From an uncultured Candidatus Bathyarchaeia archaeon (lineage in GTDB: Archaea; Thermoproteota; Bathyarchaeia; Bathyarchaeales; Bathycorpusculaceae): a stretch of 22,931 nucleotides of DNA. Shown in pieces: positions 9,675-13,740 of this stretch. Both the position numbers and the translations under genes were made by a program. The DNA lies in NCBI GenBank assembly GCA_964450845.1, contig CAYVGZ010000009.1, positions 1-22,931 of the forward strand, read 5' to 3'. The notes under the pieces are model-generated. The model did not search any database. It was not told the DNA's origin and worked only from the letters and a program-made list of their open reading frames with translations. Each line of letters begins with the position of its first letter. Position 1 is the stretch's first letter.

Positions 9675-10394
9675 ATGAAAATTTGTGATGCCCACGTTCA
9701 TCTAGGAAAGTCAGGTCCTTGGCAACCATATGCCAATCCGACAATCTATGTGAATGAGCTCATTAGCCTCTTTGACAAATACAGCGTTGAAAAAGCAGTT
9801 GTTTTTCCAAACCCCAATGTAGGCGATGAATACCCCAAAATGAATAATTACATTGCAAATTGCGTAAATAAATATCCTAGGCGTTTTATCGGGTTTGGGC
9901 GTGTTGACCCGCGAAGAGAAGACGCTGTAAAAGAGTTAAAGCGTATAAAAAATGGTTTAGGCTTAACCGGGCTTAAGCTACATCCAATGGTGGAGTGCTT
10001 TAGGCCAGATCACCCGTTTTTCAGCAAGTTTTTCCAAAAAGTTAACGAATTAAGTCTTCCCACATTATTTCATTCGGGTGATGGCTTTTCATCAGTAGGG
10101 CTTATCTTAAAAATTGCTAAAAAATATCCAAAACTGCCCATAATTCTAGGTCATTTAAGGGAATCAGCCATCAATGCCTTAAAAGAATGCGAGAACGTTT
10201 ACGTTGAAACCTCTGGCACCTTACCTGAATTTATTGAATTCTCAGTGGACACAGACGAAGACAGGATACTGTTTGGTTCTGACGTTCCATATTATCGTTA
10301 TCCAACTCAAATAGCAATCGTTGAAGCTGCGGAAATTTCCCAAAAAGCTAAGAGAAAAATTTTCTTTGAGAACTTCCAGAAAATGTTTAGCTGA
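9675..10394 (+). CDS. Amidohydrolase family (Amidohydro_2-type) metal-dependent hydrolase
   Basis: DAHVH, KLHP, FHSG, GH and FGSD metal-ligand motifs of the TIM-barrel amidohydrolase superfamily; SD GGAGA. Confidence 0.88.
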   Translation: MKICDAHVHLGKSGPWQPYANPTIYVNELISLFDKYSVEKAVVFPNPNVGDEYPKMNNYIANCVNKYPRRFIGFGRVDPRREDAVKELKRIKNGLGLTGLKLHPMVECFRPDHPFFSKFFQKVNELSLPTLFHSGDGFSSVGLILKIAKKYPKLPIILGHLRESAINALKECENVYVETSGTLPEFIEFSVDTDEDRILFGSDVPYYRYPTQIAIVEAAEISQKAKRKIFFENFQKMFS

Positions 10395-10434: not shown

Positions 10435-11835
10435 ATGGCTCTTAAATGTGTTAAATGTGGTCTAGAATTTCCATTGTTTCCTCCACAACACAAATGTGAA
10501 AGGTGTGGAGGAGCTTTAGAATACGAGCTTGATTTGCAAAAAGATAGTAAAATTAAATTTTCGGGTCAGATGCGCTTTTGGAGGTATAAACCTTTACTAC
10601 CGCCAGTAAAACATTTAATAAGCCTAGGCGAAGGAGGAACTCGGCTTCACAAGGCGGAAAGACTTGCTAAGACTATGGGCTTAACGGATTTGTATCTAAA
10701 GGATGAAACCCGAAACCCCACAAACTCCTATAGGGACCGTGCAGCCGCTCTCTTAACATCAAATGCTATGGACTTTCAATATGACACGTTAATCTGTGCG
10801 ACAAATGGAAATTTGGGCGCTTCTCTCGCTGCTTATTCTGCAAAGGCTGGGTTAACCTGCCATGTGATTGTGCCAAAGATTGTTGATGTTGGAAAACTGG
10901 CTCAAATGCTTGCATATGATGCTGCTATTGAAGAGTCTGGCGAGATTCTTGACGATTCCATACGCAAGGCTAACGCTCTGGCGAAGGAAACAGGTTGGTA
11001 TCAAGCAACTGCAGAGCTAAATCCTCTTGCAATTGAAGCGCAGAAAACAATTTCATATGAGGTAAGTGAACAGTTTGGTGTTCCAGAATGGTTTGTGGTT
11101 CCAATGGGAAGTGGCGGAACCATTTATTCTATTTGGAAGGGCTTCCAAGAGCTTGAGCAGCTTGGGATAACGAACTCTCTGCCAAAAATGGTTGGCGTTC
11201 AACCAGAAGGATGCGCATCCATAGCTAAAACATTCATGGGAGGACGCTCCAAATTGACAAAAACGCTGAACCCCTCCACTCATGCGCTTGCTGTTTTGGT
11301 GGCGGAACCGCTACAAGGTGAATTAGCAATAAAAGCATTAAAGGAATCGAGTGGTTTGGCTTTGACTGTTTCTGATTCAGAAATTTTTGCAGCGGAGCTT
11401 CAGATAGCCAAACTTGAAGGAATGTTTGCAGAACCAGCAAGTTCAGCCACAATCGCTGCTTTAAAAAAACTTGTGGCAGAAGGAAAAATGCGTAAGCACG
11501 ACAGCGTTGTATGCCTCATTACAGGAAGCGGGCTCAAAGCCACGGATGTGCTTCAAGGCTTAACCAAAAAGCAAAAAACGGCAGGCGTAGGCTTAGAGTT
11601 AAGCACAAAAGAGAAAATACTGCGAATCCTAAGCAAAAGAGACACATATGGCTATGATCTGTGGAAAAAACTCGGAAAAACCATGACCAGAGCCGCCATA
11701 TACCAACACTTGAATGAGCTTTCGGAAAAAGGATTAATTGCAGGCTACACAAAAAATGAGAGAAAATTCTTCAAGGTCACAGAACGTGGAAAAAGAGCTT
11801 TGCATGCGATTGAAGATTTGAAGCTTTTAATGTAA
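10435..11835 (+). CDS. Threonine-synthase-like fold-type II PLP domain (Schiff-base Lys replaced by Arg) with N-terminal Zn ribbon and C-terminal PadR-like winged HTH
   Basis: CVKC/CERC ribbon; KDETRNPTNSYRDR where ThrC has SFKDR; NGN, PMGSGG and TGSGLK retained; the C-terminus ILRIL...YGYDLWK...IYQHLNEL...GLI...RKFFKVTERG is a wHTH. Confidence 0.85.
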   Translation: MALKCVKCGLEFPLFPPQHKCERCGGALEYELDLQKDSKIKFSGQMRFWRYKPLLPPVKHLISLGEGGTRLHKAERLAKTMGLTDLYLKDETRNPTNSYRDRAAALLTSNAMDFQYDTLICATNGNLGASLAAYSAKAGLTCHVIVPKIVDVGKLAQMLAYDAAIEESGEILDDSIRKANALAKETGWYQATAELNPLAIEAQKTISYEVSEQFGVPEWFVVPMGSGGTIYSIWKGFQELEQLGITNSLPKMVGVQPEGCASIAKTFMGGRSKLTKTLNPSTHALAVLVAEPLQGELAIKALKESSGLALTVSDSEIFAAELQIAKLEGMFAEPASSATIAALKKLVAEGKMRKHDSVVCLITGSGLKATDVLQGLTKKQKTAGVGLELSTKEKILRILSKRDTYGYDLWKKLGKTMTRAAIYQHLNELSEKGLIAGYTKNERKFFKVTERGKRALHAIEDLKLLM

Positions 11836-11874
11836 TTTGAATGTTATTTCTCTCATTTAAAGGCGATAAATTAA

Positions 11875-11900
11875 AATAGTATAGTTATAACTAAACTATT
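11875..11900. promoter_or_regulatory. 26-bp near-perfect palindrome (candidate operator) over the ECF S-component promoter
   Basis: AATAGTATAGTTA|TAACTAAACTATT, 12 of 13 pairs, ending 16 nt before ATG11917. Confidence 0.6.
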
Positions 11901-11916: not shown

Positions 11917-12672
11917 ATGCTGTCTTCAAAAACTATGATGAAGAGTCCCATTCAGCTTGGAGTTACCGGTGTTTTTACGGCTCTCGTATGTGTGGTAACC
12001 ATGATTTTTTCAATTTACGTGCCAAGCACGAGAGGATTCTTTAACGTTGGCGAAACCATGGTGTATATAACGGCGTTGCTTTTTGGCCCATTTGTAGGCG
12101 CTTTCGCCGGTGGCGTGGGTTCAATGTTTGCCGATGTGCTTCTCGGCTACTACTACTTCGCACCAGCAACTTTGGTCATTAAAGCATTAGAAGGAGGATT
12201 GGTAGGTTTCTTAAGCCGCAAAAAACCTCTTTTCTCTAAGTATCACACAAGGCGCGAATGGAAAATCTTTACTCTTGAGATTGGAGTGCTTGTCGGAGCT
12301 CTAGTGAGCCTTATAGGTTTCCTGTACTACAGCGGCATCGTGGAATTATACTCTGGCATTCCTCCACCAGAAAGTCCCACATCGACAATTTTTATTCCAA
12401 TGGAATTCTGGCTGGGTTTGGGTGCTTTTGTTGCATTATTGATAGCAGTCATAGGCTTTGTTTCTGAACCAGAAATCGGATGGACGGTTATCTCCATAAT
12501 TTTTGGAGGGTTGCTGATGGTTTTTGGCTATTTTCTTTACGAACAGTTTTTCCTCGGAGTTTTGGCGGTCGCTGAAGTTCCTATAAACATCGGACAAATG
12601 ACAGTTGGACTAATCGTAGCAACACCAATAGTAAAAATCATTCAGCGTGCTTTGCCACAACTTAAAAGCTAG
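11917..12672 (+). CDS. ECF transporter substrate-specific S component (COG4720/HmpT-PdxU2-like) with extra membrane hairpin
   Basis: GFFNVGE...LLFGP..GA..GGVGS..AD...GY...AP.T..IK..EG signature and C-terminal GYF.YE...N..Q; SD GGAGGG. Confidence 0.85.
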   Translation: MLSSKTMMKSPIQLGVTGVFTALVCVVTMIFSIYVPSTRGFFNVGETMVYITALLFGPFVGAFAGGVGSMFADVLLGYYYFAPATLVIKALEGGLVGFLSRKKPLFSKYHTRREWKIFTLEIGVLVGALVSLIGFLYYSGIVELYSGIPPPESPTSTIFIPMEFWLGLGAFVALLIAVIGFVSEPEIGWTVISIIFGGLLMVFGYFLYEQFFLGVLAVAEVPINIGQMTVGLIVATPIVKIIQRALPQLKS

Positions 12673-12705: not shown

Positions 12706-13740
12706 ATGAAGTTGCCATTAGGAAAAATCCCAATAGAAATTTTGAGGAATGTCATTTTCCAAAACCTAGGTTCAAAACGCAACGAAGTTGCTTTAGGCCC
12801 TTCTGCAGGATTTGACGGTGCAGTCATAAACGTTGGAAACAAGTCCTTAATTGTCTCCACGGATCCCATTACAGGAGCAATGGAGCAAATTGGCTGGCTT
12901 GCCGTAAACATTAATGCAAACGACATCGCCACCTTTGGTGTCGAACCAGCTTTCTTCCTTTCATGCATTTTGCTTCCTGAAAAAGAGAATAGGCAAATGG
13001 TTGAAACAATATCTGTCCAAATGGACAAAGCTGCTAAAAAATTGGGCATGGCTATTGTTGGAGGGCACTGCGAAGTAACTCCTGGACTGACTAACCCGAT
13101 AGTTGTAGGCTGCACAATGGGCTTAACAGAAAAAGGAAACTACGTGACAGCAGGAGGAGCTAAACTAGGAGACAAGCTTATATTAACAAAAAGCGCTGGA
13201 ATCGAAGGAACCGCAATTCTCGCGGCAGACAGAGAAGAGCAGTTAAAGAAGGCATTAAAGCCTAAAATGTTGCAGAATGCCAAAAAATTCTATGACAAAA
13301 TAAGCGTCGTTAAAGATGCACTTACAGCTTTCAAGACAGGCGGCGTAACTGCTATGCACGATCTGACAGAAGGAGGTGTAAGCGGGGGAATCCACGAAAT
13401 GGCAGACGCATCAAACCTAAGCGTAAAAATATTTGAAGAAAAAATCCGTATTCAACCAGAAACCAGCAAAATATGTGAATTTTTTCACATTGATCCCTTG
13501 CAACTCATTAGCTCAGGAGCGCTGCTCATTTCTGCTAAGCCAGAATTTGCAGACAGGATTATTGGAGAATTGGAGCAGAAGCAGATTCATGCTTCTATAA
13601 TCGGCGAATTTTTGGAGAAATCGCGTCGTCGCTTGATCGTAAGGGAAGACGGTGAAACTCGAGCTTTACCTAGACCAGTATCTGATCATCTTTGGCTTGC
13701 CCTTCATGGGGAATTTCCAGAATTTTTGTTCAAAACCTGA
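12706..13740 (+). CDS. AIR synthase (PurM)-fold ATP-dependent protein, PurM-like subgroup of unknown function
   Basis: G.D.AV, STDPIT, NDIA..G..P, GGHCE and MHDLTEGG motifs. No C-terminal PRIC cysteine, so not HypE. Confidence 0.85.
   Translation: MKLPLGKIPIEILRNVIFQNLGSKRNEVALGPSAGFDGAVINVGNKSLIVSTDPITGAMEQIGWLAVNINANDIATFGVEPAFFLSCILLPEKENRQMVETISVQMDKAAKKLGMAIVGGHCEVTPGLTNPIVVGCTMGLTEKGNYVTAGGAKLGDKLILTKSAGIEGTAILAADREEQLKKALKPKMLQNAKKFYDKISVVKDALTAFKTGGVTAMHDLTEGGVSGGIHEMADASNLSVKIFEEKIRIQPETSKICEFFHIDPLQLISSGALLISAKPEFADRIIGELEQKQIHASIIGEFLEKSRRRLIVREDGETRALPRPVSDHLWLALHGEFPEFLFKT

Follow-up and report, generated by a model that had tools for sequence, protein, structure and literature searches.

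One gene of the window (the whole stretch of 22,931 nucleotides that was analysed) encodes a protein of threonine synthase (ThrC) type that has lost the lysine forming the Schiff base with pyridoxal phosphate (PLP) and ends in a PadR-type winged helix-turn-helix (wHTH). This protein is likely to be a dimeric repressor, responsive to vitamin B6 or PLP, of B6 uptake and, where present, of B6 synthesis, although its binding of ligand and DNA is inferred. We observed the fused architecture, a family-wide loss of the lysine, the linkage to a putative transporter gene, and a candidate operator whose conservation, uniqueness and placement could be established. A sequence-only reading of this DNA had proposed that a ThrC-fold pseudoenzyme was reused as the ligand-binding domain for the wHTH. 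The comparisons below support that proposal, and the ligand was narrowed to vitamin B6, its binding still being inferred, because the lysine is lost across the family, a separate ThrC exists, a transporter S component is linked to the gene, and a palindrome lies at the S-component gene and, in genomes with pdxS, at pdxST.

Domain architecture of the fused protein

The features of the locus are collected in Table 1. Solved threonine synthases were the top PDB sequence matches of the fused protein (HMMER alignments, E 1e-58, identity about 35%), and they also led the Foldseek search made with its AF2 model, with TM (target) of 0.85-0.89. The N-terminal zinc ribbon matched zf-ChsH2 weakly in Pfam, and the same element is found in the canonical archaeal ThrC paralogue of this genome. 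The model had a mean pLDDT of 93.7 and a disordered linker before the wHTH. The PadR-like wHTH claimed earlier for the C terminus was recovered as PF03551 at residues 395-457 (E 4e-11, 43.2 bits against a gathering cut-off of 27), and the model contained helices at 391-401, 406-412 and 419-431, wing strands at 435-448 and a further helix at 450-465. Thus, the score above the cut-off together with three helices and a beta-hairpin wing in the model met the test for a PadR-family wHTH.

The fused protein was predicted to form a homodimer with a value of 0.84 against 0.00 for the best control. Of the proteins solved as one-chain pairs, 20 of 30 reached the mark, as did 1 of the 23 solved as single chains. 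The contact agreement between runs was at least 61%, the partner pLDDT was at least 86 and the interface lay within the PALP domain. Because solved ThrC dimers exist, this predicted pass may reflect mere likeness to them.

Table 1. Features of the fused gene, its candidate operator and the downstream genes (positions in the window).
Feature	Position	Strand	Basis
Fused-protein gene, 466 aa: zinc ribbon, Lys-less ThrC-type PALP domain and PadR wHTH	10435..11835	+	ORF, Pfam
Zinc ribbon, N-terminal CxxC...CxxC (C5, C8, C21, C24)	10447..10506	+	From translation
Fold-type II PLP-enzyme domain, threonine-synthase type, residues 62-364	10618..11526	+	Pfam PALP, E 2.7e-73
R100, codon AGG, in place of the PLP Schiff-base lysine	10732..10734	+	Sequence, alignment to ThrC structures
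Flexible linker between sensor domain and wHTH, residues 377-387	11563..11595	+	pLDDT <50, AF2
PadR-type wHTH and C-terminal helix, residues 395-466	11617..11832	+	Pfam PF03551, AF2 model
22-bp palindrome TAGTATAGTTATAACTAAACTA, candidate operator	11877..11898	.	Conservation, PWM
ECF-transporter S component, 251 aa, HmpT/PdxU2-like, candidate for B6-vitamer uptake	11917..12672	+	PF07155, E 1.3e-28
PurM-superfamily (AIRS/AIRS_C) protein, reaction unknown	12706..13740	+	Pfam

Loss of the Schiff-base lysine in the fused family

In the solved threonine synthases 2ZSJ, 2D1F and 6CGQ, the residue aligned by HMMER with R100 is the lysine of NPTGSFKDR, while the fused protein reads NPTNSYRDR. The sequence and the ThrC alignments thus confirmed the replacement reported earlier, and the protein fails the Schiff-base lysine criterion of a functional ThrC. 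In PLP chemistry, arginine can neither form the internal aldimine nor serve as the catalytic base. The other cofactor elements said to be kept were all found, namely NGN at 124-126, the PMGSGGT loop at 223-229 and TGSG at 363-366. We take N126, the glycine loop and T363 to have PLP-binding roles by analogy with ThrC structures.

The conservation of this arginine, on which the earlier proposal depended, was examined in the close homologues. It was present in all 120 of those listed (74-100% identity, the protein of the window included), 118 of which were scored by motif search and the other 2 by visual inspection, and a read error or a private mutation behind the AGG codon was therefore excluded. 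Among 71 representatives of fused PALP+PadR proteins, taken from clusters at 50% identity, the lysine is left in only two. The others carry L, I, R, V, M, T, F and further residues at this position, and L, I, V, M, T and F account for most of the family. The unfused ThrC relatives have the lysine in 64 of 64. Of roughly 70 positions with a conservation of 80% or more in the unfused group, only the lysine is completely lost in the fused forms, which keep N126, G225/G227, T363, D101/R102, K204/T205, E209 and E333 as well as nearly all of the substrate-pocket positions common to the nearest unfused enzymes. The alignment contained no new conserved lysine in the PALP domain of the fused forms that could compensate. 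As judged from these alignments, the lysine has been lost across the family and only in the fused forms. The fusion family was found in Archaea only. Some fused members retain the lysine (P0121, P0125 and Promethearchaeia/Hermodarchaeota loci), and so its loss is not a requirement for the PALP+PadR architecture. Five further representatives of about 620 aa that seemed to combine the lysine with an HTH were alignment artefacts, and the one scanned with Pfam (P0217) has a LeuA allosteric domain and no HTH.

Annotation as threonine synthase

It had been expected that automated pipelines would call this gene threonine synthase, and they do. The fused protein scored 196.7 bits with TIGR00260 (thrC), above the cut-off of 167.1, and the source databases label its homologues with the same name. 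Two other profiles stayed below their cut-offs, NF006050 with 269.7 bits against 303 and NF004170 with 408.6 against 421. The latter (PRK05638, NCBIfam) models the entire fused architecture and spans residues 3-459. The fused protein is not the only candidate of the genome for the ThrC step, since a separate canonical ThrC of 369 aa with the lysine is encoded in it (NF005035, 441 bits against a cut-off of 301). The zinc ribbon, the PALP fold and nearly all of the conserved framework residues are shared with ThrC, whereas the missing Schiff-base lysine, the attached PadR domain and the true ThrC elsewhere in the genome set the fused protein apart. For these last three reasons, the name threonine synthase for NF004170 and the database homologues is probably a misannotation. 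Besides NF004170, at least 71 clusters at 50% identity bear it, and the misnaming inflates the calls of threonine biosynthesis when the metabolism of Bathyarchaeia, Asgard and Nitrososphaerota MAGs is reconstructed.

The downstream S component and PurM-family genes

When the family profile of the S component was compared with the PDB, chain S of 4HZU was the only match (E 5e-23). This chain is HmpT/PdxU2, whose substrate has been identified as pyridoxamine (PMC4860826), and PF07155 includes PdxU and PdxU2 (PMC9997740). Membership of PF07155 and HmpT as the closest solved homologue met the test for a PdxU2/HmpT-type protein. The alignment showed conservation of the residues corresponding to E41, Y120, N140 and Q143 of HmpT, and 4 of the 7 pocket residues were identical and 1 similar. 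The two proteins differ in the K found in place of H84 and the E in place of S136, and the archaeal one is longer (251 against 166 aa), an insert separating the two matched blocks. The relationship to HmpT is distant, and the best NCBIfam matches were weak and mixed (TIGR04002, FolT, RibU). The S component is given here as a candidate B6-vitamer transporter and regulated target, its transport being inferred without an assay.

A homologue of the S component adjoins the fused gene in Bathyarchaeia, Promethearchaeia/Hermodarchaeota, Thorarchaeota, Nitrososphaerota and Desulfurococcales, that is, in at least five archaeal lineages and in three different gene orders, and no such neighbour was found at about 40 loci having only an unfused ThrC. 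In Desulfurococcales, a gene for an EcfA-like double ABC ATPase comes after the S component. The PurM-family gene lies 3' of the S component in 10 Bathyarchaeia loci and one Nitrosopumilales MAG and is probably co-transcribed with it; its product scored under the cut-offs for HypE, ThiL and SelD. The Amidohydro_2 gene upstream (9675-10394) was rejected as a member of the module, as it was absent by tblastn from all the other fused loci.

A palindrome at the S-component and pdxS genes

An A/T-rich, TATA-like stretch immediately precedes the palindrome, which is 18 nt ahead of the ATG of the S component. The palindrome is conserved in 10 orthologous Bathyarchaeia loci, the flanks of which diverge, and it is unique in the 1.64-Mb genome, where its PWM scored 32.3 at this locus and 14.7 at the next-best position. 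In five relatives searched genome-wide with up to 3 mismatches, a site adjoins the fused gene in every case. The only two of these relatives with pdxS (G006 and G007) have a second site before it, ending 12 nt from the pdxS start in G006, where pdxT comes after pdxS, and about 15 nt from it in G007. The site immediately upstream of pdxST is the only other good match in either genome.

The Nitrososphaerales have a different palindrome and an Ile at the lysine position, and show the same link to pdxS. One genome (G028) contains exactly two sites, upstream of the fused gene and upstream of pdxS, and another (G029) has a single site, lying between the divergent fused gene and pdxS; reverse-pattern controls gave 0 matches in this group. 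The link between palindrome and pdxS in Nitrososphaerales is thus an independent replicate. It could not be replicated in Thorarchaeota, as no PdxS was found in the four genomes. In the lineages examined other than Thermococci, the palindrome adjoins the fused gene and its sequence changes with the clade of the protein, and a second copy of the module in a Thorarchaeota genome has its own copy of the site. The sites at a PF07155 S-component gene and at pdxST satisfy the criterion of a MocR/PdxR-type regulon, which is a functional likeness only.

Two extra weak matches were seen. One, in G007, lies at queT-queC, genes unrelated to B6, and the other is a Thorarchaeota match at an HTH_10/GNAT pair. 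Both are probably due to chance, because reverse-pattern controls gave 0-1 matches per genome.

Proposed regulation and alternative explanations

We propose that the fused protein acts as a one-component transcription factor and not as an enzyme. Its ThrC-fold domain, with the Schiff-base lysine lost and the rest of the cofactor pocket kept, would reversibly sense PLP or a closely related B6 vitamer, and a dimer formed through the ThrC-type interface would place two PadR wHTH domains on the palindrome. This site follows the TATA-like stretch and precedes the operon of the S component and PurM-family genes, from which it was drawn that the liganded protein would block transcription of this operon when B6 is plentiful. 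In the relatives that can make PLP, the same operator also lies ahead of pdxS-pdxT. That PLP is the ligand, that the fused protein binds DNA and that control is by repression are inferences without biochemical evidence; in particular, sequence-specific dimeric DNA binding has only the indirect support of the conserved palindrome and the homodimer prediction. It is possible, though we hold this more loosely, that the family is a general archaeal regulator of B6 homeostasis that arose independently of PdxR, with deletion of the lysine turning the enzyme into a reversible cofactor gauge, and that the PurM-family protein is an undescribed salvage enzyme for the imported vitamer.

The same target genes may be controlled by a signal other than free PLP, either an amino acid or phospho-amino acid (threonine, O-phosphohomoserine or 4-phosphohydroxythreonine) held as a stable external aldimine with non-covalent PLP, or PMP/pyridoxamine. 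The retention of nearly all ThrC substrate-pocket positions would suit such a signal, and without the lysine an external aldimine is not turned over, which is established PLP chemistry. Furthermore, in four Bathyarchaeia loci the fused gene has a divergently oriented canonical ThrC gene upstream of it, and the solved homologue of the S component carries pyridoxamine and not PLP. The operator, however, is found at B6 uptake and pdxST genes and not at threonine-pathway genes, and the canonical thrC of this genome, located on a different contig, lacks a site, so we regard a signal other than free PLP as unlikely, if the most serious of the alternatives. Among the ligands first suggested for the domain, B6 is thus favoured, and a phospho-amino acid is unsupported but not excluded.

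The assignment of the palindrome to the fused wHTH rests on co-localisation and co-variation, with no binding data. With no direct evidence tying the two together, the palindrome could be the site of another factor or a promoter element, the fused protein then serving in PLP storage or delivery or having other targets. The motif in Thorarchaeota and Nitrososphaerota is A/T-rich and TATA-like and could partly be promoter sequence. This explanation appears improbable in view of the co-variation with the protein clade beside the fused gene (Thermococci apart), of the one or two sites per genome, at the module or at pdxS (weak extra matches aside), and of the separate site at the second Thorarchaeota module. 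A working threonine synthase or other PLP enzyme that also binds DNA, bifunctional like RbkR or BirA, is harder still to reconcile with an arginine incapable of the chemistry, with the side chains at the lysine position in most of the family, with the absence of a compensating lysine and with the canonical ThrC of the genome. The passed TIGR00260 cut-off, the few fused relatives retaining the lysine and the archaeal enzyme-regulator RbkR as a precedent (PMC8305020) speak for it, and we nevertheless consider it very improbable. The B6/PLP-responsive repressor remains the preferred reading.

Relation to known regulators

The PdxR/MocR/GabR-type regulators of Bacteria resemble the fused protein in being one-component, in joining a PLP-enzyme fold to a wHTH and in having PLP as the proposed effector. 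MocR factors combine an N-terminal GntR wHTH with a fold-type I aminotransferase-like domain and retain the PLP lysine, whereas the fused protein has fold type II (ThrC), a C-terminal PadR-type wHTH and no such lysine, and its family was found only in Archaea. With its order of PALP then PadR, it does not meet the MocR/PdxR criterion of domain architecture. MocR factors are reported absent from Archaea, and the PdxR regulon, which comprises pdxST, pdxK and the pdxU transporter (PMC5320631), matches the inferred regulon of the fused protein in pdxST and a PF07155 S component. The resemblance is convergent and does not indicate membership.

Among archaeal regulators of vitamin pathways, ThiR, for thiamine, joins a pathway-related enzyme fold to a DNA-binding domain. 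RbkR, for riboflavin, is both enzyme and regulator (PMC8305020). The fused protein shares with them the combination of an enzyme fold and a DNA-binding domain, but they have other folds and serve other vitamins, and RbkR retains its enzyme activity. ThrC lies outside the B6 pathway, and the sensor of the fused protein would therefore recognise its own former cofactor. The PadR wHTH with a C-terminal helix is as in PadR/LmrR proteins, and the palindromic operator fits dimeric binding; classical PadR proteins, however, are small (about 110-180 aa) and hold the ligand at their own dimer interface, whereas here an enzyme-fold domain of 380 aa precedes the wHTH.

No description of a ThrC-PadR regulator and no B6-responsive regulator of Archaea were found in the literature searched. 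If the proposal is true, the gap of the missing archaeal B6 regulator would be filled, and B6 sensing would have evolved convergently, from fold type I in Bacteria and fold type II in Archaea. An enzyme that lost one residue, kept the rest of its pocket and became the sensor of its own cofactor would be a simple example of such a transition. The finding also points to a candidate archaeal B6 transporter, prokaryotic B6 transporters being an acknowledged knowledge gap (PMC9997740), and suggests that many of these uncultured lineages are B6 auxotrophs.

Vitamin B6 genes of the carriers and the Thermococci loci

Neither PdxS nor PdxJ was found in the genome of the window (93.5% complete), in which a Phos_pyr_kin kinase and EcfT are present. 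PdxS was also missing in 22 of 23 further carriers, MAGs of unknown completeness subject to the same confounding by kinship as the nearer relatives: most of the Bathyarchaeia relatives lack PdxS with or without the fused gene (11 of 12 without it, the twelfth being ambiguous). The absence of PdxS was therefore rejected as a marker of the module and its correlation was not used as evidence.

No palindrome was found near the fused gene in Thermococci, and an inverted repeat upstream of pdxS in a Thermococcus MAG was discarded as a regulator site, since no link to the regulator could be made. The sequence-only reading had mentioned similar Arg-bearing fusions in Thermococcales. This is supported in part, by an uncultured Thermococci MAG with a full-length Arg form (L033) and by a Thermococcus sp. 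MAG, the Arg form of which is cut by the contig end (L071). The fused gene of Thermococci follows the aCPSF1/FttA gene.

The fused gene encodes a threonine synthase-like protein without the Schiff-base lysine

The fused gene encodes a zinc ribbon, a PALP domain and a PadR-type winged helix-turn-helix (wHTH). The sequence-only reading had placed arginine at the position of the PLP-binding lysine of threonine synthase (ThrC), with the NGN, PMGSGG and TGSG elements kept and a C-terminal wHTH, and all of these claims were borne out. In HMMER alignments with three solved threonine synthases, R100 (NPTNSYRDR) stood opposite the Schiff-base lysine of NPTGSFKDR; the three elements were found and the wHTH matched PadR well above the cut-off. 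The AlphaFold2 model, with 73 homologues as input, was confident (mean pLDDT 93.7) and contained a disordered linker at residues 377–387, beyond which lie three helices, a beta-hairpin wing and a terminal helix. The best Foldseek matches to this model were threonine synthases (TM on target 0.85–0.89), and no solved chain in that search covered the added wHTH. The homodimer prediction scored 0.84 against 0.00 for the best control, with agreement between runs in at least 61% of contacts, partner pLDDT of at least 86 and the predicted interface within the PALP domain. Among proteins of solved structure, 20 of the 30 that are pairs of one chain pass the homodimer mark, as does 1 of the 23 that are single chains; because ThrC dimers are solved, the pass may reflect likeness only.

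Features of the fused gene, its surroundings and the divergent canonical ThrC genes
Feature	Position	Strand	Remark
Amidohydro_2 family gene	9675–10394	+	40 nt upstream of fused gene
Fused gene	10435–11835	+	ORF, 466 residues
Zinc ribbon CxxC...CxxC	residues 5–24 of fused protein
PALP domain	residues 62–364 of fused protein		Pfam, E 2.7e-73
R100 codon AGG	10732–10734	+	sequence
PadR domain	residues 395–457 of fused protein		Pfam, 43.2 bits, cut-off 27
22-bp palindrome TAGTATAGTTATAACTAAACTA	11877–11898		between fused gene and S-component gene
ECF S component	11917–12672		next gene after fused gene; PF07155, E 1.3e-28
PurM-superfamily (AIRS/AIRS_C) protein	12706–13740	+	follows S component
Canonical ThrC, locus L013	155–1432	-	divergent from fused gene
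Canonical ThrC, locus L015	4058–5314	-	divergent from fused gene
Canonical ThrC, locus L016	3876–5135	-	divergent from fused gene
Canonical ThrC, locus L017	144–1406	-	divergent from fused gene

Most fusions lack the lysine

Arginine was conserved in 120 of the 120 close homologues listed (74–100% identity; most are from Bathyarchaeia, and the protein of the window is counted), as the sequence-only reading required, and a read error or private mutation at R100 is thus ruled out. In an alignment of the best 150 matches from 1.84 billion cluster representatives, the lysine was present in all 64 unfused relatives. In the 71 PALP+PadR fusions the position held L (19), I (16), R (13), V (6) or M (4), in the remainder T, F, S, Y, A, N or H, and lysine was kept in only two (P0121 and P0125). 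Among approximately 70 positions with conservation of 80% or more in the unfused relatives, the Schiff-base lysine was the sole one lost outright in the fusions (3% retained); N126, G225/G227, T363, D101/R102, K204/T205, E209, Q256 and E333 were 90–100% retained, and no new conserved lysine was seen in the PALP domain when the two groups were aligned. By analogy with ThrC structures, we take N126, the Gly loop and T363 to be the contacts to O3', phosphate and N1 of PLP.

Five more apparent combinations of lysine with an HTH (P0217, P0241, P0244, P0247 and P0266) were alignment artefacts; these are Lys-bearing ThrC-type proteins of ~615–622 aa, which exceed ThrC by ~200 aa. Only P0217 was scanned against Pfam; it ends in a LeuA allosteric/dimerisation domain (PF08502) and is a different ThrC fusion, presumably an allosterically regulated enzyme.

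The tree of the PALP domain alone contained two supported fusion clades, one Arg-rich (19 rows, support 99) and one hydrophobic (51 rows, support 96), and these sequences still allow the fusion to have arisen once. P0121 and P0125 nest within the Arg clade, and some fusions with the lysine, these two proteins included, still adjoin an S-component gene (loci L025–L029 of Promethearchaeia/Hermodarchaeota, L019 and L020). Since Lys and Arg codons are one base apart, retention and reversion of the lysine are both possible.

Full-length fusions were found in Bathyarchaeia and Jordarchaeum, Promethearchaeia/Hermodarchaeota (Lys kept), Thorarchaeota (I/L), Nitrososphaerota (I/L/M), Methanomethylicota (M) and in one Thermococci and one Desulfurococcales MAG (R in each); none of the bacterial matches carried the PadR fusion, every one being unfused. 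The fusion was present in 8 of 20 relatives of the window's genome and absent from both same-genus genomes. At the Thermococci loci L033 (4010–5974) and L071, the fused gene lies directly 3' of the aCPSF1/FttA (beta-CASP, KH) termination-factor gene, with neither S component nor palindrome near it.

The fused gene adjoins a putative vitamin B6 transporter gene

With an HMM of the S component, homologues next to the fused gene were located in several lineages and gene orders: downstream on the same strand in Bathyarchaeia and Desulfurococcales, convergent in Promethearchaeia/Hermodarchaeota, and divergent in Thorarchaeota, Nitrososphaerota and one Ile-type Bathyarchaeia MAG. No homologue was detected at ~40 loci holding only unfused ThrC. 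A profile of 16 module S components, searched against PDB sequences at E up to 1, had 4HZU chain S as its sole match (E 5e-23); RibU, FolT, ThiT and BioY were not matched. This chain is HmpT/PdxU2, in which pyridoxamine was identified as the bound substrate (PMC4860826), and PdxU and PdxU2/HmpT, both PF07155, are among only three characterised prokaryotic B6 transporters (PMC9997740). HmpT residues E41, Y120, N140 and Q143 aligned with identical conserved residues in the archaeal S components, W76 with an aromatic residue, and H84 and S136 with invariant K and E.

The PurM-superfamily protein of the window did not reach the cut-offs of HypE, ThiL or SelD; at ten Bathyarchaeia loci and in a Nitrosopumilales MAG (L059), the S component has a PurM-family gene on its 3' side, which may encode a B6 salvage enzyme not yet described. 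In Desulfurococcales, the gene 3' of the S component encodes an EcfA-like double ABC ATPase. The upstream Amidohydro_2 gene, present at none of the other fused loci, is probably not a module member. In a Nitrososphaerota MAG (L064, 4359–6068, minus strand), a divergent AA_permease_2 family gene, not an ECF S-component gene, shares the palindrome with the fused regulator and may encode an alternative B6 or amino-acid carrier.

PdxS (PF01680) and PdxJ (PF03740) were not found in the window's genome (1.64 Mb), but a Phos_pyr_kin-family kinase and EcfT are present, and the host is therefore probably a B6 auxotroph that imports the vitamin. The absence is not proven because the assembly is 93.5% complete. 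PdxS was not found in 18 of 21 searched genomes of the window's Bathyarchaeia order, and the lineages without it are probably B6 auxotrophs. Most fusion carriers lack PdxS; this was not counted as evidence because non-carrier relatives lack it too.

A conserved palindrome marks the fused gene and pdxS

The palindrome is kept in ten orthologous Bathyarchaeia loci (consensus TAGTATAGTTATAACTATACTA) with diverging flanks, and a symmetrised PWM scored the window's copy 32.3 against 14.7 for the next best in the whole genome. It lies directly 3' of an A/T-rich TATA-like stretch (11866–11876) and ends 18 nt 5' of the ATG and 6 nt 5' of GGAGGG. Archaeal operators so placed typically block initiation, as established for other archaeal repressors; the same action here is an inference from position.

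Five relatives were searched genome-wide with up to three mismatches, and the palindrome was beside the fused gene in all five; reverse-pattern controls gave 0–1 matches per genome. Only two of 20 relatives (G006 and G007) have PdxS, both with the fused gene, and in both a second palindrome lies directly upstream of pdxS. In G006 it ends 12 nt 5' of the pdxS ATG, and the ORFs that come next encode PdxS (338 bits) and PdxT (147 bits); the arrangement in G007 matches. A three-mismatch match at the start of a queT-queC operon in G007 (L093, 1876–1897, contig C54) is probably chance; queT encodes another ECF S component, for queuosine precursor.

The pdxS link was independently replicated in Nitrososphaerales, which have Ile in place of the lysine and an inverted repeat of another sequence, ATATATAAG-N6-CCTATATAT, that also occurs at Thorarchaeota loci. 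Genome-wide with up to three mismatches (controls, 0 matches), one genome (G028) had exactly two sites, upstream of the fused gene and, on another contig, ~100 nt upstream of pdxS. The single site of G029 lies in the intergenic region common to divergent pdxS and fused gene, and that of G026 between the fused gene and a divergent S-component/PurM-type operon. Two copies of the module, each with a site, are present in one Thorarchaeota genome; the second (L094, 1247–3411, G022 contig C14) pairs a 497-aa PALP+PadR gene with a divergently oriented PF07155 S-component gene and carries a palindrome of its own.

A proposed B6-responsive regulator

Taken together, the missing lysine, the gene neighbourhood, the operator and its occurrence at pdxS supported the proposal of a ThrC-fold ligand sensor controlling a wHTH and narrowed it to vitamin B6. 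We consider it likely that the fused protein regulates B6 genes, and hold with less confidence that PLP itself is the effector. The protein would dimerise through its PALP domain, each subunit keeping a cofactor pocket in which covalent PLP tethering and substrate turnover would be impossible, and PLP occupancy would follow the free PLP pool. Once liganded, the dimer would use its two PadR domains to bind the palindrome, repressing B6 uptake and, where present, pdxST. The ligand, DNA binding and direction of control are inferences, and PMP or an amino-acid-PLP aldimine remains possible as the signal instead of PLP.

PdxR of bacteria likewise joins a PLP-enzyme fold to a wHTH and regulates pdxST, pdxK and pdxU, and MocR factors are reported absent from Archaea (PMC5320631). 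The likeness lies in the way of working; the fused protein differs in fold (type II instead of type I), in its C-terminal PadR wHTH instead of an N-terminal GntR domain and in the lost lysine, and is not a member of the PdxR family. It also parallels archaeal RbkR and ThiR. Enzyme-derived vitamin-sensing transcription factors are a known kind; the proposed ThrC-PadR form would be a new one among them, and no description of this family was found in the literature searched.

Canonical threonine synthase and annotation

The fused protein is not the cell's threonine synthase: the window's genome also encodes a 369-aa ThrC with SNPTGSFKDRGS and without an HTH (441 bits, NF005035 cut-off 301). As had been foreseen for annotation pipelines, the fused protein clears TIGR00260 (196.7 against 167.1) and public sources label its homologues 'threonine synthase', a name also borne by NF004170/PRK05638, which models the whole fused architecture. 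At four loci of Bathyarchaeia, the Lys-less fused gene has a canonical Lys-bearing ThrC gene (418–425 aa) divergently upstream; this arrangement could be left over from the duplication behind the regulator, or could mean that regulation extends to threonine synthesis.
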